A stretch of DNA of 64,000 nucleotides, taken from Elusimicrobiota bacterium (lineage in GTDB: Bacteria; Elusimicrobiota; Elusimicrobia; Elusimicrobiales; UBA9959). Numbering within the stretch: the stretch's first letter is position 1; the number at the start of each line of letters is the position of its first letter. The notes beneath the pieces were generated by a model, which did no database searches, was not told where the DNA came from, and saw nothing but the letters and a program-made list of their open reading frames with translations. The stretch covers positions 1 to 64,000 of the forward strand of contig JBAXKK010000001.1 in NCBI GenBank assembly GCA_037137395.1, in the 5' to 3' direction. Positions 24,180 through 63,843 of this stretch are shown piece by piece. The position numbers and the translations under genes are program-made.

Positions 24180-24208
24180 TTGACTTTTTCGAAAATAGGC
24201 TGTATGCT
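24180..24208 (+). promoter_or_regulatory. Sigma70-type promoter for the peptide genes
   Basis: TTGACT-17 nt-TATGCT. Confidence 0.65.
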
Positions 24209-24232
24209 ATAACTACGACTGTGGAGGATAAT

Positions 24233-24478
24233 ATGAAAACGCGAATGACGAAGTGTTTTGTCGTACTGTTTGCCTTTGCTGCTATCGGGTATATGGCTGT
24301 TTCAATGGGGCGGGTCAGAGTGGCCAATGCCGATGATGTTTCGACCAGCAGCGTGGTTAGCACGAGCGGCAGCAACACTACCACTGACTCGAGTGGCAGC
24401 TCGAGCAGCGATTCAAAGAAAAAGGATAAGAAGGACAAAAAGAGCAGCGGCGGTAGCAGCGGCGGATGTTGCGGTTAG
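24233..24478 (+). CDS. Secreted Ser/Thr-rich peptide with C-terminal GCCG (paralog 1, 81 aa)
   Basis: GGAGG RBS; signal peptide ending ANA; paralogous to 24625-24804. Confidence 0.85.
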   Translation: MKTRMTKCFVVLFAFAAIGYMAVSMGRVRVANADDVSTSSVVSTSGSNTTTDSSGSSSSDSKKKDKKDKKSSGGSSGGCCG

Positions 24479-24624
24479 AGTTTATCCTATATAAGGCTTT
24501 CATAGCGGCCGTCTTACGGACGGATACATGTTTCGGATAATAAGCTCCCCCTGTATTTGTGTGTTAGGGGGGTGGTGTTGTTTTTAAAAACATAGTGGGA
24601 ATCACATGGCTGTGGAGAATTGAT

Positions 24625-24804
24625 ATGAAAACTCGAATGATGAAGTGTTTTACCGTACTGTTTGCCTTTGCTGCTATCGGGTATATGGCTATTTCGATGG
24701 GTGTGGTCAGGAGTGCCAATGCCAGCAGCACCGGGACGACAACAACAGATAGCACTGGGAGCAGCGGCAGCAGCAGTGGAAAGAGCAGCGGTTGTTGCGG
24801 TTAG
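24625..24804 (+). CDS. Secreted Ser/Thr-rich peptide with C-terminal GCCG (paralog 2, 59 aa)
   Basis: GGAG RBS; near-identical leader MKTRM.KCF.VLFAFAAIGYMA.SMG.VR.ANA. Confidence 0.85.
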   Translation: MKTRMMKCFTVLFAFAAIGYMAISMGVVRSANASSTGTTTTDSTGSSGSSSGKSSGCCG

Positions 24805-24836
24805 CCCGGGTTTCGCATAGTCACCACAGATAGGTG

Positions 24837-24878
24837 AAAACAAGTCCCGCCCAAAGTTTGGGACGGGACTTGTTTTTT
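24837..24878. terminator. Bidirectional intrinsic terminator
   Basis: AAAACAAGTCCCGCCCAAA / TTTGGGACGGGACTTGTTTT between convergent genes. Confidence 0.85.
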
Positions 24879-24908
24879 GTGAATTGGTGTATCCAACCGA
24901 TGTCGGGA

Positions 24909-25712
24909 TCAGTGGGTTCGGCCGGCGGATATTTGCTCGCCTATTTTTTGAAGAGGAGTAAGATCCATCCCCGGTGTTATCGCGGAGGGAAGGCTTGAGG
25001 CCATGTTGCTTACAACCGTCATTGACATGGCGTCCACATAAGGCGAGGCCTGCTTATCCGCGCACAAGAAGTTCATTACTTCATTATATATTGCGTCCGG
25101 TGGAGGGTTGCGCATCGCCTCCAGCGATACCGATAATATCCCCTTCACCACTTCCGGGTCAGCGCTGGCTCTTATCAGCTTATTGCGCACTTCCGGCAGC
25201 GCTATAGTTCCGCGAGCCCATTTATAAGCGTCTTTATCTTTGTCGTATTGTTTTTTCAGCGCCATATACCTGTCCATTTTTGAAAAATCGGCATTGAGCT
25301 TGCGAAGCGCCGGATATTGCGCCTTGTATTTCAGCCCAAGACGATAAAGATAGGCCTGATACTTTTTGATTTCGCGGCCATGCTTGCGCAGAAACTCCGC
25401 TTCAGTTAGTTTTTTTGCCGAAGTTTCGTCCCCGCGGACCTGCGCCGCCGCGGATCTGGTGGCAGGTCGGGTTTGTGCCATATTCGGTTCCGATTCTGTT
25501 CTTTTAGCTTCGTTCTGAGTAGGTTCCGAACTCTCTTCGAAACCTGAGGCCTCATCGGTTACGGGAATCTCTTCCGCGCTGTACTCTTCCGTTAAACCGG
25601 CATGAGAACCGGAATTGCTGCTGAGAAACCATTTTGTCAGTAATATCGCGGTTAGAGCGCAGATAGGCAGTATCAGCCATATAGCCCAATTGTTTTTTTT
25701 CTCTTCTTCCAT
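24909..25712 (-). CDS. Membrane-anchored hypothetical protein
   Basis: ATG 25712 with GGAGG RBS; N-terminal TM, acidic linker, helical domain. Confidence 0.75.
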   Translation of the reverse strand: MEEEKKNNWAIWLILPICALTAILLTKWFLSSNSGSHAGLTEEYSAEEIPVTDEASGFEESSEPTQNEAKRTESEPNMAQTRPATRSAAAQVRGDETSAKKLTEAEFLRKHGREIKKYQAYLYRLGLKYKAQYPALRKLNADFSKMDRYMALKKQYDKDKDAYKWARGTIALPEVRNKLIRASADPEVVKGILSVSLEAMRNPPPDAIYNEVMNFLCADKQASPYVDAMSMTVVSNMASSLPSAITPGMDLTPLQKIGEQISAGRTH

Positions 25713-25905
25713 AAGTCCTCCGTAAAATTTGTCTCGCACGAGCTTGTTCCCGTGCGACACACTAATAATATAACAAAGGAACAATGCAGTCAAGAAGCCG
25801 CAGGATGCCTTATGGGAGTCTTTAAATAATGTGGCATCCGCTTCAGAGATCAAGTCTGGTTAAGAAAACAAAACGGCGAAGCCGGATTTACATTGCGCGG
25901 CTGAA

Positions 25906-26700
25906 CTATTGATTGGCAGGTGTCCGTCCTGATATTCGTTTGAGATATTCGGCTGCTTTGATGCCGGCCAGGACTATGGCGGAATCAAACACGCATCCGA
26001 ATAGTATCCCATACGCTGTCCCGAAGCGGGCGGCTTGCGTGTGATAGGTCCAGCAATTATTGGTTGTTCCCCACAGATCCGCAAAAAAAACGCAGGCCGT
26101 CCCTGTAAAAACAATCCTCATATATCTGATGCGGTGTTTTTTGCCGGGAAAAAGGATCGCCGCGGTTAAAAGTATGGGCAGTACGCATGCCGGCGCGGAC
26201 AGTTTTGTCGCGATAAAAGGCACAAAAACGCAGTAAAACAGGGCTACCCACGCCCAATAAAAACGTTCGCTGTTCAACTTCGCTAAAATGCCGTCCGGCT
26301 GTTCTCCGGCGCGGCGGGCGAGGCGTTCCACTACCAGGACGCCCAGGGCCCAGGCTGGGACTATCCAATACGGAGGTTTTTCGCCGGTGTAATATGTCCA
26401 AAGTCCAGACTGTGTCCCCCATAGCTCCGCCAAAAAGCCGAAAAAAGAGGTGATTAAGACGGTGAGGCAATCTGTTAGTGGGTCCGCGGCGAGCGGAATC
26501 GCGCGGACGGTCAGAAATAATATGGCCGCGAACAATATCATCTCAAAAATAACTTTCAGCCTCGGCCCCCAGCCCGCCGCGAGGCTTGCCAAAGTTGAGG
26601 TGCAGGCGCCAGTCACCAGGTCGGCCCTCAGCAGCGCCAGGCCGGCGAACACCAGAATCAGCGCGGCCAGATATATCTTTTTGTAGTTTTTTTGTGTCAT
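25906..26700 (-). CDS. Polytopic membrane protein with duplicated (E/D)LWGTxxxxWTY motif (DUF2878/CruF-like)
   Basis: AELWGTQSGLWTYY and ADLWGTTNNCWTYH; ATGA overlap with the lgt stop. Confidence 0.7.
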   Translation of the reverse strand: MTQKNYKKIYLAALILVFAGLALLRADLVTGACTSTLASLAAGWGPRLKVIFEMILFAAILFLTVRAIPLAADPLTDCLTVLITSFFGFLAELWGTQSGLWTYYTGEKPPYWIVPAWALGVLVVERLARRAGEQPDGILAKLNSERFYWAWVALFYCVFVPFIATKLSAPACVLPILLTAAILFPGKKHRIRYMRIVFTGTACVFFADLWGTTNNCWTYHTQAARFGTAYGILFGCVFDSAIVLAGIKAAEYLKRISGRTPANQ

Positions 26701-27461
26701 AAGCGGCGGTACCATAATAAACTCCCGGCAGCGCTTGCTATTGATATAAGCTGGGCTGTAGTGAGCTGACACGCCCAGGAAATACCAGCGTCTCCGGCCC
26801 GGATAAAATCTACGGAAAAACGCAGAATGGAATAAAGAACAACCGTGATAACAAACGCTCCGCCCGGCTTCAGGCGTTCATTTTTTACAAAAACAAAATA
26901 TACCATAAGAAATATAGCGAGGCTGCCCAGAGACTCATAAAGCTGGGTGGGGTGAACGACCTTCCCTGACAGGAATCTGTACGAGGAGCAGTGCGGGTCG
27001 GTGTATCTGACCCCCCAGCTGCGAGCCGTGGCAGCGCCGTGGCAGCATCCGTGCATGAAGCATCCTATACGCATTATGGCCAGGGCGAGGACGGCGGACA
27101 GGCCGATTGAATCAGCGACCCTCTTAAAATCAATTTGCTTAACGCGGCAATAGATATACGCGAAGGCGAAAGGCGTCCAGAAACTACCCCAGAAGGAACC
27201 GCCCGGAATTCTTTTGGTTTTAGCAAAAAAAGACAGATTGTTGGCCAATCCTCCGTTGTAAAAAATCGCGTAAAACAGAAGAGCGCCGCCTACGACCCCC
27301 AGCGCGATAAGGAGCACCAGGTTCCAGAAATCGTCAAGCGAAAGTTTCATGCGGCGCGCGGAAGCTTTAAAATATAAAAACCCCGCCAGGCTGGACAAGC
27401 CCGCGAAAAGGGGTGCGGCAAAAACATCAAAACCCATCACTGAAAATAAAACAGGTCTCAT
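26697..27461 (-). CDS. lgt: Prolipoprotein diacylglyceryl transferase-like protein (divergent Lgt)
   Basis: RIGCFMHGCCHG, HPTQLYES, Y...RF.VDF.R; N-terminal YG motif absent. Confidence 0.8.
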   Translation of the reverse strand: MRPVLFSVMGFDVFAAPLFAGLSSLAGFLYFKASARRMKLSLDDFWNLVLLIALGVVGGALLFYAIFYNGGLANNLSFFAKTKRIPGGSFWGSFWTPFAFAYIYCRVKQIDFKRVADSIGLSAVLALAIMRIGCFMHGCCHGAATARSWGVRYTDPHCSSYRFLSGKVVHPTQLYESLGSLAIFLMVYFVFVKNERLKPGGAFVITVVLYSILRFSVDFIRAGDAGISWACQLTTAQLISIASAAGSLLWYRRL

Positions 27462-29116
27462 AATAAACGGGCGTTACCGGGAGATCTTATCATGGCTAAA
27501 AACACAAAAAATGATACCAATAAAATTCCGAAAAGGCATAAAAGGTTCCCGTGTTTTGAGTAAAAAGTCCGATGCTCCATAAGCTGAATTTTGGCGGTCA
27601 TGGAGCCGCGCTCTTTTACCTCCAGCCTTCTCACAACCCGCCCTGTCGGATCTATCACGGCGCTTATGCCGGTGTTTACTGCTCTTATAAAAAACCTTCT
27701 GTTCTCTATGGCCCGCAAAGCGCTTAGATTTAAATGCTGTTCGGGCGACATGGTGTATCCGAAGCGCGCCTCATTAGTGATATTAAACAAAACATTTGCC
27801 CCTTTTGAAGAGAATCTTCTTGAGGCTTCGGTATAGAGGTCCTCGTAGCATATCACCACTCCCGCTTTGACCTTGGCGAAGTTCAGGGGCGCCGAAATAG
27901 CGCCGGGTGAAATATCGTCGGAGTATGGGAATATCCTGTATAAACGAGGAAAGAGGCCGCCCAGCGGTATGAATTCCCCGAAGGGGAAAAGATATCTCTT
28001 TTCCGTCAATCCTAAAAGTTCCCTTTCCGGGCCGGTAATAAACGCGATATTGCGCTTGGACGCGCTCTGCGGCGGAGGTCCTTCCGATTTGCCCGTAAAA
28101 CGGCCCTTTGCCCCCATAAGCATCGTCGTCTTGTAGGGGACCTCGGCTTTTAAAGTGCGCGCGAAGCCGGGATTGAATATTGATTTTTCTCCGGAGGAAT
28201 CCCTGAATGTTCCATACTCGGCGATCCGGTCATATACGGATTCCGGCCAGATCACAATATCGGTAGCGGTTGTCTTTAAAACTTCAGACGTCAGCCGGCG
28301 GTATACGCCAAGTGTTTCGGCATCTTCAACCTGGCCGGCGCCCTGTATTACTGATACGTTGATGGAATGCCCGCGCGCGGTTTCGGTTTTCATGAGGGCG
28401 TCTATTTGTCTGATCCTCAGAGACCCGTAATACTCGTTAAGCGAGATCAGGCCACAGAACGCGCCGAAGATAGCTATGGCGGAAGAAAGGCCGCGCAAAC
28501 CGCTGGGTATGGGTTCAGATTTGCGCTCCCATAATGTCTTTACCAGAAGACAAGCCGCCGCGTTGAACCCGAGTATGAGCCAAAGCAGGCCGGGCGGCCC
28601 GAAAACTTCCAGGATTTGCACTTGCGGAAGATGAAAATACTGGGTGTTGGCGAAATAAACTGGGAAAAGCATGGGAAAAAAGCGTTCTACCGCCGCCATT
28701 ACAGGCGCGGCGGCCCAGATAAGGGTGATCTCCTTGCGCCAACCCATGCGCTTAAATAAATAATCACTCAAAGCGCTTGCGGCGCCTGTTAAGATGGCGA
28801 ACATGAGGCCGTGCCAGGCGAAGAAGGCCAGGAGCAGCGGCAGCGCCGCCGCAAAATTAATCCCAAGGAATTTTAAAAGGGGCGAGATGAACCAGTATAT
28901 TCCGGACAGCCAGGCGAAAATGCCGAAGAGCCAGCCCTTTAAAAAAGCCGTTTTCCAATCCCCTCTCAGAATTATCCAAAAAAGCGGCACAAAAACAAAC
29001 CAGAACAGCCAGCCGTAATTTCCGGGCCAAAAACAAATTCCCGTCGCGATGCCGGCCGCGATAAGCGCGCAAGTCTCAATTAAAGCTGGGAGCCTAAAGG
29101 GATTTAATCGTTTCAT
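27458..29116 (-). CDS. lnt: Apolipoprotein N-acyltransferase paralog
   Basis: TM domain + nitrilase triad WPES, KRYLFPFGE, ICYE; RAIE, NTGIS. Confidence 0.88.
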   Translation of the reverse strand: MKRLNPFRLPALIETCALIAAGIATGICFWPGNYGWLFWFVFVPLFWIILRGDWKTAFLKGWLFGIFAWLSGIYWFISPLLKFLGINFAAALPLLLAFFAWHGLMFAILTGAASALSDYLFKRMGWRKEITLIWAAAPVMAAVERFFPMLFPVYFANTQYFHLPQVQILEVFGPPGLLWLILGFNAAACLLVKTLWERKSEPIPSGLRGLSSAIAIFGAFCGLISLNEYYGSLRIRQIDALMKTETARGHSINVSVIQGAGQVEDAETLGVYRRLTSEVLKTTATDIVIWPESVYDRIAEYGTFRDSSGEKSIFNPGFARTLKAEVPYKTTMLMGAKGRFTGKSEGPPPQSASKRNIAFITGPERELLGLTEKRYLFPFGEFIPLGGLFPRLYRIFPYSDDISPGAISAPLNFAKVKAGVVICYEDLYTEASRRFSSKGANVLFNITNEARFGYTMSPEQHLNLSALRAIENRRFFIRAVNTGISAVIDPTGRVVRRLEVKERGSMTAKIQLMEHRTFYSKHGNLLCLFGILLVSFFVFLAMIRSPGNARLL

Positions 29117-30318
29117 GACAGGGGTTTCGCTTCTATATGGTCTGCCGAGTGAATCAGATACCGATAGCCGCCCCAAACCACTTCACGCCGGCACAGCGAA
29201 GCGATAAAATTAATAGCATAAACGAGTTGCAACGAAACAGCCAGCAATGGGTAATAGATAGCGGCGCGTAAAATACCGCGGATGGAGAGCCTGGCCTGAT
29301 TTCCAGTGTCGCCGCGCCAGCATGATTTAAAGGCGCGTGAAATTAAGGAGAGGTTCGCTATGTCGGCCAAAAAAAGAGCCGTTACCGGTACAAACTCGGC
29401 GCGTTGCAGCGCCCACCAGACGGCATAAAACTTGAAAAAAGTAAGCAAAACCCCCGGGAGCCATACGGCTTTTGCGTAGAATCGGAAATATAGCGTCCAC
29501 CGATTCAGAATCAAAAAAAACCGGCGCCTGTCCCAGCTGTCCATGGAGCGCGGGATCGCGCGGGATACAAAATAGACTTTCCTGCCGGACCGCCTCACCA
29601 ATCGCGTCAATGTTAAGTCCTCGCAAAGGGAAGTCCGCCATGCGCGCGGTACATTCAGGAGCGCAAAATCCTTCCTGCTTATCGCCAGGGAGTTGCCTGA
29701 AATGATATTCATGAGCTCCATATATATGACGCCGCCGGAAACCCATGCTTGCATCAGGTGCCCCCAGAGATCATCCGGGGCTGGCGCGGGTAAAGTATGG
29801 GCTGTGGTCACTATTACATCGGGATTTTCCAACGGACGGACCATGCCTGTCAGCCAGTCGCGCGGAACGGTAAGATCGCAATCGGCAAAAAGCAGGACTT
29901 CCGAATTTTCCGACACATGTTCGCAGCCGTATAATATGTTCAATATTTTCTCGCTGCAGGCTGAAGCTGAGGCGCCGGAAGATATGAGAACGCTCCGGCG
30001 CGGCCCCGGCCGGGAAAGAATGGCCTCCAGTTTTTTAAAAGCCGGATCGCCGCGTGACGGGACGACAAAAATATATTCGGCCTCACCGGGATAATCCTGT
30101 TCTAAAATGGAGTTGATGTTGGATTCTAAATTTTCCGGGGATCCCTTGCAGGGAACAATAACCGACACGCGGGCGGGAGGATCGCGGAAAGGTTTTGCGG
30201 GCCGGGGTCGGGCGCGAAAAAAGAAACGCAGGGTGATCAGCAACTGCGCTGTTCCGACCGCGAGACAAGCGGATAACATTTCAACAGAAGAGGGAACGAT
30301 CATATATTGATCCCGCAC
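29113..30318 (-). CDS. GT2 glycosyltransferase, ceramide-glucosyltransferase/HpnI-like (start may be 30303)
   Basis: VSVIVPCKG, QDYP, CSEKILN, FADCD, CED, xxRW; N- and C-terminal TMs. Confidence 0.82.
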   Translation of the reverse strand: MRDQYMIVPSSVEMLSACLAVGTAQLLITLRFFFRARPRPAKPFRDPPARVSVIVPCKGSPENLESNINSILEQDYPGEAEYIFVVPSRGDPAFKKLEAILSRPGPRRSVLISSGASASACSEKILNILYGCEHVSENSEVLLFADCDLTVPRDWLTGMVRPLENPDVIVTTAHTLPAPAPDDLWGHLMQAWVSGGVIYMELMNIISGNSLAISRKDFALLNVPRAWRTSLCEDLTLTRLVRRSGRKVYFVSRAIPRSMDSWDRRRFFLILNRWTLYFRFYAKAVWLPGVLLTFFKFYAVWWALQRAEFVPVTALFLADIANLSLISRAFKSCWRGDTGNQARLSIRGILRAAIYYPLLAVSLQLVYAINFIASLCRREVVWGGYRYLIHSADHIEAKPLS

Positions 30319-30506: not shown

Positions 30507-31553
30507 TTATTTTTGGAAGTATTCCGCGCCGGTGTTGTCTATGTAAAATACTTTGCCCTCAAACACGGCTTTGGCCGCGCCGTTTTTGAAGCCCGAGACC
30601 TGATCATACTTAAATGGTATAACTTCCTTGCCAGTTTTATCAATGAAACCCCATTTAGTTTTCTGAAGGTCGCAGGCCTTTGTTACGGTGCCTTTGCAGA
30701 TATTGCCGCTGCGCGGCTTTAAGACCGGGGCTAATCCTTCGCTGAAAGATGCGCACATAAAATAAGAAAATGGTATTTTTTCAAGTCCTTCCGTGTCTAT
30801 GTATCCGCATCGGCCGGATGCGTCCAGTTGTCTTTCCGCGTGCGCCAGACCTTCGGTATAAGGCCCGATGTTGAAAAATTCTTTTGCCTTGAAAGATTTT
30901 GTTTCCAGACTGATAAATCCGTACTGCACGCGCAGGCGGGCTGAAGCGAAACCATCCTGAAAAGAAAAAGCTTCTTCATATACGGGGGGAATGGCCTCAA
31001 CGCCGGTTTTGTAGATGTATCCGTATAAGCCACCCGTCTTTACTCTGGCCAAGCCCTGGCTGAACTGAAAGATTTCATCATATTTTGTAGGAGTGAACCG
31101 TTTGGAAGTAATATCCAACACACCCCAGCGCCCGTCTTTTTTTGCCCCTGACAGGCCTTCGCTCACCTGCATAGCGCTTTCGTATTCAAAAGGGATCACG
31201 GTACGCCCGGTCTTGTCTATATACCCCCATGCGCCTTTCAGTTTTACCGGGGCCAAACCTTCGCTGAATTCCCCGGCAGCCTGGTAGGATATTGGTGATA
31301 TCAGTTTGCCGGCCGTGCCTATATAATTGTATCTGCCTCCGGATATCACCATGGCCAGGCCCTCACGGAATGGCCAGGCAAAATTAAAGCGCGGCCGGAT
31401 AATGACTTTTTTAGCTTTATCCGCGTAACCCCATAGGTGCCCGAATCTGTAGGGCATGAGAGGAGTGTCCGTTCCCTGGGCGTAAAGCACGGGCGTATAA
31501 GAAGATAGCAGGCAAATACAAAGGATGAGAGGTTTCATTTTGCGGCTCCCCAT
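30507..31553 (-). CDS. Secreted WG-repeat protein
   Basis: Repeated FSEGLA.V...G.WGYID..G...IP..Y units. Confidence 0.9.
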   Translation of the reverse strand: MGSRKMKPLILCICLLSSYTPVLYAQGTDTPLMPYRFGHLWGYADKAKKVIIRPRFNFAWPFREGLAMVISGGRYNYIGTAGKLISPISYQAAGEFSEGLAPVKLKGAWGYIDKTGRTVIPFEYESAMQVSEGLSGAKKDGRWGVLDITSKRFTPTKYDEIFQFSQGLARVKTGGLYGYIYKTGVEAIPPVYEEAFSFQDGFASARLRVQYGFISLETKSFKAKEFFNIGPYTEGLAHAERQLDASGRCGYIDTEGLEKIPFSYFMCASFSEGLAPVLKPRSGNICKGTVTKACDLQKTKWGFIDKTGKEVIPFKYDQVSGFKNGAAKAVFEGKVFYIDNTGAEYFQK

Positions 31554-62430: not shown

Positions 62431-63843
62431 ACCCTGCTTCTGCCAGCGCTCACAGCACTGCTTCTTATCTTCAGCTATCCAAAGTTTAATCAAGGGTGGT
62501 TGGCGTGGCTGGCCCTGGCCCCGCTCACGGTCTCACTCTGGAAAGTTAAAAGCCTCAAACAAGCCCTGATAGCCGGTCTCGTGGCCGGTTTCTTTTTTTA
62601 CGCCGGCATCCTTTATTGGATCTATCCAACCATGCGCGCCGGAGGGGTTATCCCGGTTGTTTCCGCTTTCGGTCTGGCGGCTTTAAGCCTGTTGATGGCG
62701 TGCGAGTTCATTCTTATCGCCGGTTTCGGCTTTTATCTGAAAAGGATAGGGCCCCGGATCTGGCCTTGTGTTTTTGCCCTGGGTTGGGCTCTGCTGGAAT
62801 ATGGCAAGATTTACCTAAGCCTTAAGGCGGTATGGTTTCCCTGGTTCATGCTTGGTTATACGCAGTGGGAGTACACGCCCATCATCCAACTTGCCTCCCT
62901 GACCGGAGTTTACGGCCTTAGCGCGGCAATCTGTTTCACCGGCGCGCTGGCTGGAAGTATTTTAGTCGCGGATATCACCACTCTTAAAAAATTTTTGCGC
63001 TTTATCCCCGCTCCGGCTCTGATAGGTTTGATATTTTTTTACGGAGGTCGGGAACTTAAAACAGCCGACAATGCCGTGGCACCAAAATCGTTTAATGTCG
63101 CCATACTGCAGCCATCCATAGACCTTTACGCGAAATGGGACGCGGCTCAGGCTCGTAATATTCGCGCAGACATGGAGGGGCTGGCTGCCGCGGCCAAAAA
63201 CTCTGATCTGGTCGTCTGGCCGGAAAACGCTCTGCCGTGCTGGATAGATGAGCCCGAATGCTATGCCTGGCTTAAAGCCGCGACGCTCCGCCCCGCCGGC
63301 GTGAGTATCGTGGGATCCGTGTCTAAGGGGGACGGACGCCATGTGTCCGCGTTCCTGCTGGATGAGAAGGGTGAAATAAAAGGTTCTTATGATAAACGCC
63401 AACTGGTGCCTTTCGGGGAGTATGTGCCACTGCGGGGTTTGCTGGGAAGATATATTAAGCCCGTGGCCGCGCTGGGGGAATTTCTGCCGGGTGCTCCTGC
63501 TCAGGGGCTTATGACATTCGGTGATTTTAAAATAGGCGCGGCCATTTGTTACGAATCGGTTTTCCCTTACCTGTTTGCCGGCGACACCCTGGCCGGCGCC
63601 GAAGTCTTTGTTAATATCACCAACGATGGCTGGTATCTGGATACCGCCGCGCCGTATCAGCATTTTCTTGTTAACATTTTTCGGGCGGTTGAAACCCGAA
63701 GACCGGTAATCCGCGCGGCCAATAACGGCATCTCGGCGGTTATAGATCCCTGGGGCCGAGTGTTGGTCAGGAAAGATCTGAACGAGCGCGGCGTTCTGAA
63801 GGTGAAGGTTCCCGTTTATTCCGATCTCGGCCTCAGCTTTTAA
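62353..63843 (+). CDS. lnt: Apolipoprotein N-acyltransferase (probably housekeeping; start uncertain)
   Basis: WPEN, KRQLVPFGE, ICYES, NDGW, RAVE, NNGIS. Confidence 0.92.
   Translation: MGSKSKSQRFGFRNLKSGILNFESATTLLLPALTALLLIFSYPKFNQGWLAWLALAPLTVSLWKVKSLKQALIAGLVAGFFFYAGILYWIYPTMRAGGVIPVVSAFGLAALSLLMACEFILIAGFGFYLKRIGPRIWPCVFALGWALLEYGKIYLSLKAVWFPWFMLGYTQWEYTPIIQLASLTGVYGLSAAICFTGALAGSILVADITTLKKFLRFIPAPALIGLIFFYGGRELKTADNAVAPKSFNVAILQPSIDLYAKWDAAQARNIRADMEGLAAAAKNSDLVVWPENALPCWIDEPECYAWLKAATLRPAGVSIVGSVSKGDGRHVSAFLLDEKGEIKGSYDKRQLVPFGEYVPLRGLLGRYIKPVAALGEFLPGAPAQGLMTFGDFKIGAAICYESVFPYLFAGDTLAGAEVFVNITNDGWYLDTAAPYQHFLVNIFRAVETRRPVIRAANNGISAVIDPWGRVLVRKDLNERGVLKVKVPVYSDLGLSF

Follow-up and report, generated by a model that had tools for sequence, protein, structure and literature searches.

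We report a gene cluster of the Elusimicrobiota in which small secreted peptides lie beside paralogues of the lipoprotein enzymes Lgt and Lnt. It occupies positions 24,180 to 30,318 of a 64,000-nucleotide stretch of contig JBAXKK010000001.1 (assembly GCA_037137395.1), the whole of which we call the window. Judged from its sequences, the cluster appears to be an undescribed variant of lipidation as known from lipoproteins and from peptides that are made by ribosomes and modified after translation (RiPPs). It would be a dedicated, lipobox-independent cysteine-lipidation system, in which the lipoprotein pathway has been rebuilt for an acceptor cysteine that lies away from the signal peptide. Lgt-dependent lipidation of the cysteine motif of the peptides seems to us likely; given that step, cleavage together with N-acylation is fairly likely to follow, and the full route, cleavage included, is by our estimate only just probable.

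In the window, two tandem peptide genes on the plus strand converge on a minus-strand run of five genes, which encode a glycosyltransferase (GT), an Lnt, an Lgt, a polytopic membrane protein (mem) and a membrane-anchored protein that we call the partner. ATGA overlaps are found at all three junctions GT/lnt, lnt/lgt and lgt/mem. The initial annotation, made from the letters of the window, had described tandem peptides converging on an ATGA-joined GT2-lnt-lgt-mem operon with an anchored unknown behind it, and every element of that description is present. It had also taken the Lnt for an extra copy, which agrees with a second Lnt at window positions 62587-63759, beside a secA-like gene. The genome that holds the window (G000, 98.9% complete) carries its second Lgt on contig C53, so that the cluster lgt is not its only copy, and has otherwise one other Lnt and one LspA. 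Named homologues come from the Elusimicrobiales/Elusimicrobiota. Both window peptides are preceded by a GGAG(G) ribosome site, begin with a basic and then hydrophobic N-terminus, continue through a Ser/Thr/Gly-rich middle and end in G-C-C-G-stop. Among the 1,046 signal-like short open reading frames in six frames of the whole genome only two carry this motif, and both are the window peptides.

Forty peptides from related loci were aligned; as members were picked for the Cys-Cys pair, its presence in all of them is by construction. They share 36% identity in the signal region and 14% in the linker, and the motif, with the consensus [GS]-G-C-C-[GS], lies anywhere between residues 41 and 126. A relaxed lipobox pattern matches none of the 40 and neither window peptide, and a hydrophobic 15-mer or transmembrane segment after the Cys pair is likewise absent from all 40. 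Past the hydrophobic segment, 34/40 have a small-x-Ala or Ala-x-small site, in its strict A-x-A form in 14. The chain stops directly after CC[G/S] in 23 peptides and continues into a tail in the other 17; in four of the tailed peptides the tail is 28-60 residues long and contains a two-Cys module common to ordinary lipoproteins. The view that the peptides lack a lipobox and end in GCCG thus stands for the two in the window, whereas in relatives the motif is often not C-terminal, and the idea of a strictly C-terminal signal has to be given up. Variants outside the alignment have a single Cys (G-G-S-C-G, L156:2325-2787, found beside GT-Lnt) or separated ones (P-C-G-N-C-G, L114:10287-10550; G-C-G-C-G, L038:3011-3181), and because the last Cys with its small residue is common to every motif variant seen, we regard this as the constant one. 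The codon of the second motif Cys is TGC in 40/40 peptides, compared with 87/103 Cys codons in the cluster lgt genes. No NCBIfam family, CTERM models included, scored over its cut-off for any of the 40.

Cluster-holding genomes also have GGCC[GS] peptides that stand as orphans, a long way from the cluster (L309:5847-6221, L310:1712-2281, L311:7339-7632, L312:193-381, L151:12080-12307), one of them with a Cys-rich tail of about 100 residues behind the motif. A second peptide gene at L027:11100-11340 has a frame shift at the Cys-Cys motif and is either a pseudogene or an assembly error.

The link between operon and peptides is much stronger than adjacency in one genome, and the data support their belonging to one system. 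The mem alignment, run against species-representative genomes, gave 28 loci, 26 of them in the Elusimicrobia/Elusimicrobiota and two in other phyla, where neither lgt nor peptide was found at the locus. There are hints of mem-like clusters in Myxococcota as well. Peptides were sought by a pattern of signal-like start followed by [GSA]-CC or -CGC beyond residue 30, and at least one was found in 20/26 of the Elusimicrobiota loci; among the partner-containing loci the count is 19/20, and the remaining locus ends inside the partner gene. In profile scans of 401 genomes of the phylum, 20 gave a partner match at E<1e-30, and the next-best match stood at 9e-13 (94 genomes at E<=0.001, distant paralogues included). 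The peptide profile detected 21 genomes at E<=1e-4 (27 at 0.01), namely these 20 and one Cys-less match. mem was present in 19 and the extra Lnt in 16, all within the same 20, so that the extra Lnt was never found without a peptide (16/16). These profiles were partly built from the genomes that they detect; seven of the 20 (G006, G062, G161, G319, G342, G351 and G378) contributed no peptide to the profile alignment.

The extra Lgt, at E<=1e-75, is a single copy in 25 of 251 genomes of the class, and a peptide lies within 1.5 kb of it at 18 of the 25 loci. Five of the other seven have a peptide further off in the same genome, and two lie on contigs that end at the cluster. The co-occurrence of homologous operons with Cys-tailed peptides, by which the first proposal could be checked, is therefore seen; related genomes are not independent, and we attach no statistic to it. 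Gene order varies: besides the GT-lnt-lgt-mem-partner run facing the peptides in the window, we find lgt-mem-peptide or mem-lgt-peptide facing the partner, and in G378 and G319 lgt is followed directly by the peptide, facing the partner, with mem elsewhere. Lgt and mem are fused in two records (P0042, L033), and GT and Lnt are fused in several relatives, with the GT N-terminal to the extra Lnt. The peptide, the anchored partner, the Lgt paralogue and mem form a conserved unit, to which the GT-Lnt pair is an optional addition. The extra Lnt was not found in 4/20 peptide genomes in the scan, one of which (G409, 81% complete) holds only a fragment at a contig edge, below threshold.

That Lgt acts on the motif is supported mainly by a second group of loci. 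Weak matches to the partner profile define a sister family that is homologous to the partner (hhalign 99.1%, E 1e-18), and at 17 of 27 sister loci the partner homologue faces, tail to tail, a small Cys protein with a signal. None of the 27, with 2-10 kb examined at each, contains lgt, lnt, mem or GT. The 26 sister Cys proteins were chosen only for a signal and any Cys, and the relaxed lipobox pattern matches all of them; a second Cys follows no more than 14 residues away in 25/26. Five tailed cluster peptides align with the sister proteins from signal to tail (hhalign 98.1%, E 7e-14, scores that short Cys-rich profiles inflate), and this comparison makes the cluster peptides homologues of ordinary small lipoproteins found in the same class. 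Five genomes that have only the sister module hold one Lnt each, and all their Lgts fall outside the cluster clade described below. Housekeeping enzymes thus accompany a lipobox, and a dedicated Lgt accompanies a displaced Cys motif; from this co-variation we infer that the dedicated Lgt acts on the motif, which looks like a lipobox moved away from its signal peptide.

The sister module is itself undescribed as far as our literature search reached. It comprises one or two small lipoproteins per locus (for example L160:3952-4386, L163:3690-4147, L245, L246, L249, L256, L257 and L260), mostly in family f8. In these proteins a second conserved Cys (G-C-G/S) follows the lipobox Cys at a distance of 3-14 residues, and there is a module C-G-x-G-T-x(5)-C-V; 18 of them were compared with NCBIfam, and no family scored over cut-off. 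A third, more distant group of partner homologues occurs in family f1 (L138, L140, L142, L143, L147 and, in G000, C1:121793-122710 = L165:4793-5710), and a small Cys protein was not found beside them in 6/6 loci. The G000 member has a weak ubiquilin/STI1-like Pfam match and stands beside a PMT_2-type glycosyltransferase.

The dedicated Lgt is a clear member of its family (139 bits against PF01790, curated cut-off 24.9) that falls under the cut-off of the TIGR00544 equivalog (88.6 bits against 118.9). In a tree of 63 rows the cluster Lgts form one clade of 29 rows, three of which had not been labelled beforehand, apart from the other 34 with support of 100/97; the comparison with housekeeping copies that had been proposed thus separates them. 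R143 is kept in 24 of 25 cluster Lgts, and G104, G145, G154, Y235, R239 and R246 in all 25, over sequences that share 35-69% identity. R143, R239, Y235, R246 and G154 belong, with Y26 and G142, to a published 13-residue Lgt motif (bioRxiv 2025.03.27.645668; here and below, papers are cited for their accessible text). At H103, N146 and E151 the cluster Lgts have substitutions, mostly of types that the same source gives as natural, and the Lgt phylogeny presented there may include members of the cluster clade. Two other arrangements of Lgt were seen, both with Y26 and G142 kept: tandem Lgt genes from different clades in family f8 (L200, L201, L213, L215, L220, L229), and a further clade, in eight genomes, with Trp at the H103 position.

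The extra Lnt of the window scores 196 bits against TIGR00546 (cut-off 132.9), and its Glu292-Lys373-Cys423 triad is intact. Across 20 extra Lnts the Cys and Lys are kept in every one and the Glu, which we take to be E267 in Lnt numbering, in 15. Like the Lgts, they stand apart from the housekeeping copies, as a fast-evolving group (FastTree support 93 and 98).

The best matches of the GT are PF13506, TIGR03472 and ceramide glucosyltransferase, which places it with the GT21/HpnI-like kind. Its acceptor is probably a lipid, on the grounds of this resemblance, of the lack of a recognised hopanoid cyclase and of the two unlinked paralogues mentioned below, and the GT is the least securely tied part of the cluster. 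Hopanoid tailoring by an HpnI enzyme was rejected, as TIGR03472 gives 87 bits against a cut-off of 310 and squalene-hopene cyclase (PF13243) was not found in G000. Several clusters carry two or three GT21 genes, and in ten loci (L025, L027, L032, L036, L037, L040, L047, L060, L067, L148) a PF01593-type flavoenzyme adjoins the GT or Lnt, once as a fusion. Other lipid-tailoring genes near clusters are geranylgeranyl-reductase-like (three loci), PAP2 (two) and UbiA (one).

The anchored partner is the most constant neighbour of the peptide, a position that was not recognised when it was first noted as an unknown following the operon. Its structure model has a predicted local distance difference test score (pLDDT) >87 across residues 101-250; its members have no Pfam family in common, and neither a usable Atlas match nor a match in the plasmid collection was obtained. 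The domain has no clear fold match, with nothing at E<=0.001 in Foldseek and a best Z of 4.3. mem was modelled with confidence (pLDDT 91.8), and each of its halves has a conserved acidic residue (E92, D208) within an x-W-G-T motif. In both structural searches its best match is MvINS (PDB 4XU4), an Insig homologue from mycobacteria. The match is middling (Foldseek E 0.08; Z 8.6, root-mean-square deviation 5.4, 166 aligned, 12% identity), with scores under the level trusted for helical bundles. mem shares with MvINS a two-fold internal repeat in the membrane and differs from it in two extra N-terminal helices and in the invariant acidic residues, which suggest an enzyme. MvINS holds diacylglycerol (DAG)-like density (bioRxiv 2021.06.03.446951, accessible text). 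Pfam gives only weak DUF817 matches, in 4/27 members. Away from the cluster mem occurs in contexts that point to lipid handling and not to a peptidase role, such as reductase-like neighbours and a methyltransferase fusion; at L034:10001-11653 it is fused to an S-adenosylmethionine-dependent methyltransferase and stands divergent from a geranylgeranyl-reductase-like gene, away from lgt and peptide.

Taken together, the sequences suggest a model for the pathway. The precursor would be exported through its N-terminal signal, after which the partner and the dedicated Lgt, helped by mem, would bring the [GS]-G-C-C-[GS] motif to the membrane, where Lgt would attach a glycerolipid to a Cys thiol, presumably that of the last Cys, the one kept in all variants. 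The lipid donor may not be ordinary phosphatidylglycerol, since the donor-side residues of Lgt are changed and mem, with its Insig-like fold, could hold or tailor a lipid. The chain would then be cut before the lipidated Cys, with the housekeeping LspA as the simplest candidate, and such a cut would make the variable linker a disposable spacer. Where present, the extra Lnt would N-acylate the freed amine, and the GT21-type enzyme would glycosylate a lipid acceptor of the pathway. The product would be lipid-Cys-(Cys)-Gly with any tail, which for the window peptides means a lipid with only two or three amino acids. That the GT acts on the lipidated peptide product is doubtful. It is rather unlikely that the whole yields a ribosomally templated membrane glycolipid, in which lipidation of a lipobox-less G-G-C-C-G by the dedicated Lgt, from a non-standard donor handled by the Insig-like mem, is followed by cleavage before the Cys, N-acylation by the dedicated Lnt and glycosylation by the fused GT21 to give a glyco-lipo-di/tripeptide.

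A number of observations weigh against this model. Y26 and G142 occur in none of the 25 cluster Lgts and in 34/34 other Lgts of these genomes, and the G27 position is Pro in the cluster clade. According to the accessible text of PMC4728403, the E. coli Lgt mutants Y26A/F/Q, G27L/Q/W and G142A/I/V are inactive, and Y26 touches the sn-2 ester of the donor lipid. Since these three residues are replaced, the clade has either a changed donor entry or no activity, and we favour the former because the arginines are kept at 35-69% identity. Extra Lgt copies are in any case common in this class, with 2-5 per genome. The triad Glu is replaced in five of the extra Lnts, and a K-W loop with the equivalent of W237, present in 9/10 housekeeping Lnts, is found in 0/27 cluster-type rows, in a region that aligns with gaps; in E. 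coli Lnt, transfer to the amine of the lipoprotein requires W237 (PMC6971011, accessible text). The extra Lnt was not found in three well-covered peptide genomes, G342 (99% complete), G161 (97%) and G006 (96%). In G351 the lgt-mem pair lies about 26 kb away from the peptides, mem homologues at L042 and L043 exist without any of the cluster, and two further GT21-type paralogues in G000 (C11:30575-31870, C85:7231-8403) have no lgt, lnt or peptide linked to them. Among the cluster neighbours that were scanned, none was recognisable as a peptidase gene, and in the 23 peptides that stop at the motif almost no payload would be left after cleavage.

These last two points bear on an alternative in which lipidation is not followed by cleavage. 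Lgt would lipidate the motif and the whole disordered, Ser/Thr/Gly-rich peptide would hang on the membrane by its C-terminus, with a tether at each end should the signal be retained, while the extra Lnt and the GT act on something else. An arrangement of this kind would suit the peptides that end at CC[G/S], the small-x-Ala sites past the hydrophobic segment and the genomes of 96-99% completeness in which no extra Lnt was found, and it resembles the lipidation-before-cleavage model with an Lgt-like enzyme proposed for MYXO-CTERM sorting signals (PMC11980579, accessible text). However, neither sequence nor length of the linker is conserved, the conserved folded piece, where present, follows the Cys and corresponds to the payload that ordinary lipoproteins carry, and the extra Lnt never occurs without a peptide. 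We consider a C-terminal anchor unlikely.

It is also conceivable that the enzymes make a membrane lipid or glycolipid and leave none on the peptide, so that the peptide-partner pair would be an older module attached as a regulator, or the Cys pair a transient carrier. The altered donor-site residues of Lgt and acceptor loop of Lnt agree with this, as do the occurrence of a peptide-partner pair without the enzymes in the sister module, the similarity of the GT to ceramide glucosyltransferase, whose acceptor is a lipid, the recurrence of lipid-tailoring genes nearby and the single mem-methyltransferase fusion. Yet the loss of the lipobox tracks the dedicated Lgt exactly (lipobox in 0/40 peptides with it against 26/26 in the sister loci), and Lgt and peptide remain adjacent when mem, GT and Lnt move off, which makes this account distinctly unlikely in our estimate.

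Cys-Cys tails of a metal-binding or redox kind occur in mercury and arsenic proteins. A non-catalytic scaffold role for the Lgt paralogue, with the Cys pair serving a small periplasmic protein for metal binding or as a disulfide/redox motif, would fit the replacement of three residues whose mutants are inactive in E. coli, the nearness of two Cys to each other in almost every cluster and sister peptide and the ECF sigma operon divergently upstream of lgt in many loci (below), but is improbable given the residues kept over 35-69% identity (R143, G145, G154, Y235, R239, R246), the single-Cys G-G-S-C-G variants beside GT-Lnt and the lack of metal-resistance genes among the cluster neighbours scanned.

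By the usual description, Lgt recognises a lipobox that immediately follows the signal helix. The proposed lipidation pathway resembles the canonical Lgt-LspA-Lnt route in that the enzymes score over the PF01790 and TIGR00546 cut-offs, keep the Lgt arginines and the Lnt Cys and Lys, and stand beside peptides that are homologues of small lipoproteins with a lipobox in the same class. It differs in having dedicated paralogues beside their putative substrates, no lipobox, a Cys at residue 41-126 and changes at Y26/G27/G142 of Lgt and in the W237-type loop of Lnt, and in adding a protein of Insig-like fold, an anchored partner and a GT21 enzyme. DAG-RiPPs likewise start from small ribosomal precursors with a signal peptide and have a proposed N-acyl-S-diacylglyceryl-Cys product; as described in the accessible text of bioRxiv 10.1101/2025.10.31.685832, they have canonical lipoboxes, use the endogenous pathway and involve a cytoplasmic MNIO enzyme. 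In our loci the lipidation enzymes themselves form the cluster, and membership among the DAG-RiPPs was rejected because the lipobox is absent and no MNIO-like RiPP-modifying enzyme was found among the recurring neighbours.

Like MYXO-CTERM proteins, the peptides are secreted, lack a lipobox and carry close to their C-terminus a Gly-rich motif that contains one or two Cys. For signals of the MYXO-CTERM type, both a transmembrane tail and a CPBP protease are required (bioRxiv 2023.06.07.544157), and the enzyme that lipidates their Cys is given as unknown and predicted to be Lgt-like (PMC11980579), each in the accessible text of the source. The cluster peptides are tiny disordered targets in which the Cys is followed by neither a transmembrane helix nor an Arg-rich tail (0/40), and the candidate lipidating enzyme is genetically linked to them. 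No CPBP protease was seen among recurring neighbours or the 72 neighbour proteins scanned, whole genomes not having been searched for it. With no hydrophobic 15-mer after the Cys pair and no CTERM model over cut-off, the MYXO-CTERM type of anchor that the initial annotation had in mind can be set aside. The parallel that it drew with Ppm1, the actinobacterial Lnt joined to a polyprenol-phosphate-mannose (PPM) synthase (PMC3850990, accessible text), extends to a GT adjacent or fused to Lnt and fails beyond that: the cluster GT is GT21/HpnI/ceramide-glucosyltransferase-like and N-terminal in the fusions, and the Lnt to which it is joined is an extra, non-housekeeping one in a separate clade. An Lnt/PPM synthase of the Ppm1 type was rejected on the same best matches. 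We found no paper on this cluster, or on Elusimicrobia together with Lgt or Lnt, in a literature search outside which most subscription journals lay.

An Lgt clade tied to lipobox-less substrates would demonstrate that members of this family can acquire a free Gly-rich Cys motif as a new target. It bears on which enzyme lipidates the Cys of MYXO-CTERM and related signals (PMC11980579, accessible text). The sister module and the cluster offer a natural before-and-after pair, with lipobox and housekeeping enzymes on one side and displaced motif and dedicated enzymes on the other, and the unit is small (about 6 kb) and tractable in E. coli. If the proposed pathway is correct, the motif would provide a useful tool, a tag of five residues with which lipids could be attached to proteins elsewhere than at the N-terminus, and two uncharacterised families, the Insig-like mem and the anchored helical partner, would gain their first functional handles. 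A templated glycolipid, if it exists, would amount to a class of RiPPs with what is in essence a lipid as the product, and its Lgt would be the first paralogue of that enzyme to have a cognate signal of its own.

Features of the cluster in the window, with positions counted from its first letter.
Feature	Position	Strand	Description
Sigma-70-like promoter consensus upstream of peptide 1	24180..24208	+	9/12 consensus match; not evidence of function
Precursor peptide 1	24233..24478	+	81 aa; Sec-type signal, low-complexity linker, terminal G-G-C-C-G; family profile match
Precursor peptide 2	24625..24804	+	59 aa; paralogue of peptide 1; terminal S-G-C-C-G
Hairpin between convergent units	24836..24877	.	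long, A and T runs on flanks; fold -28.2 kcal/mol
Anchored partner ('unk')	24909..25712	-	267 aa; one N-terminal transmembrane helix, disordered linker, all-helical domain
Sigma-70-like promoter consensus before partner gene	25765..25793	-	10/12 consensus match; not evidence of function
Membrane protein ('mem')	25906..26700	-	264 aa, polytopic, internal repeat
Dedicated Lgt paralogue	26697..27461	-	254 aa; PF01790 match
Extra Lnt paralogue	27458..29116	-	552 aa; TIGR00546 match
GT21/ceramide-glucosyltransferase-like membrane glycosyltransferase	29113..30303	-	PF13506/PF00535; ATG at 30303, GTG at 30318 possible

The hairpin between the two convergent units is probably a bidirectional terminator. 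Upstream of the operon, a WG-repeat gene (window 30507-31553) is not a constant member of the cluster: G004 carries it beyond the peptide, on the opposite side. At many loci in family f6 an operon for an ECF sigma factor, an anti-sigma factor and an RseB-like protein stands head to head with the cluster lgt (L027:6934-9159, L032:651-2885, L036:6165-8239, L109:11163-13229), and the RseB-like family occurs near the cluster in 11 loci.

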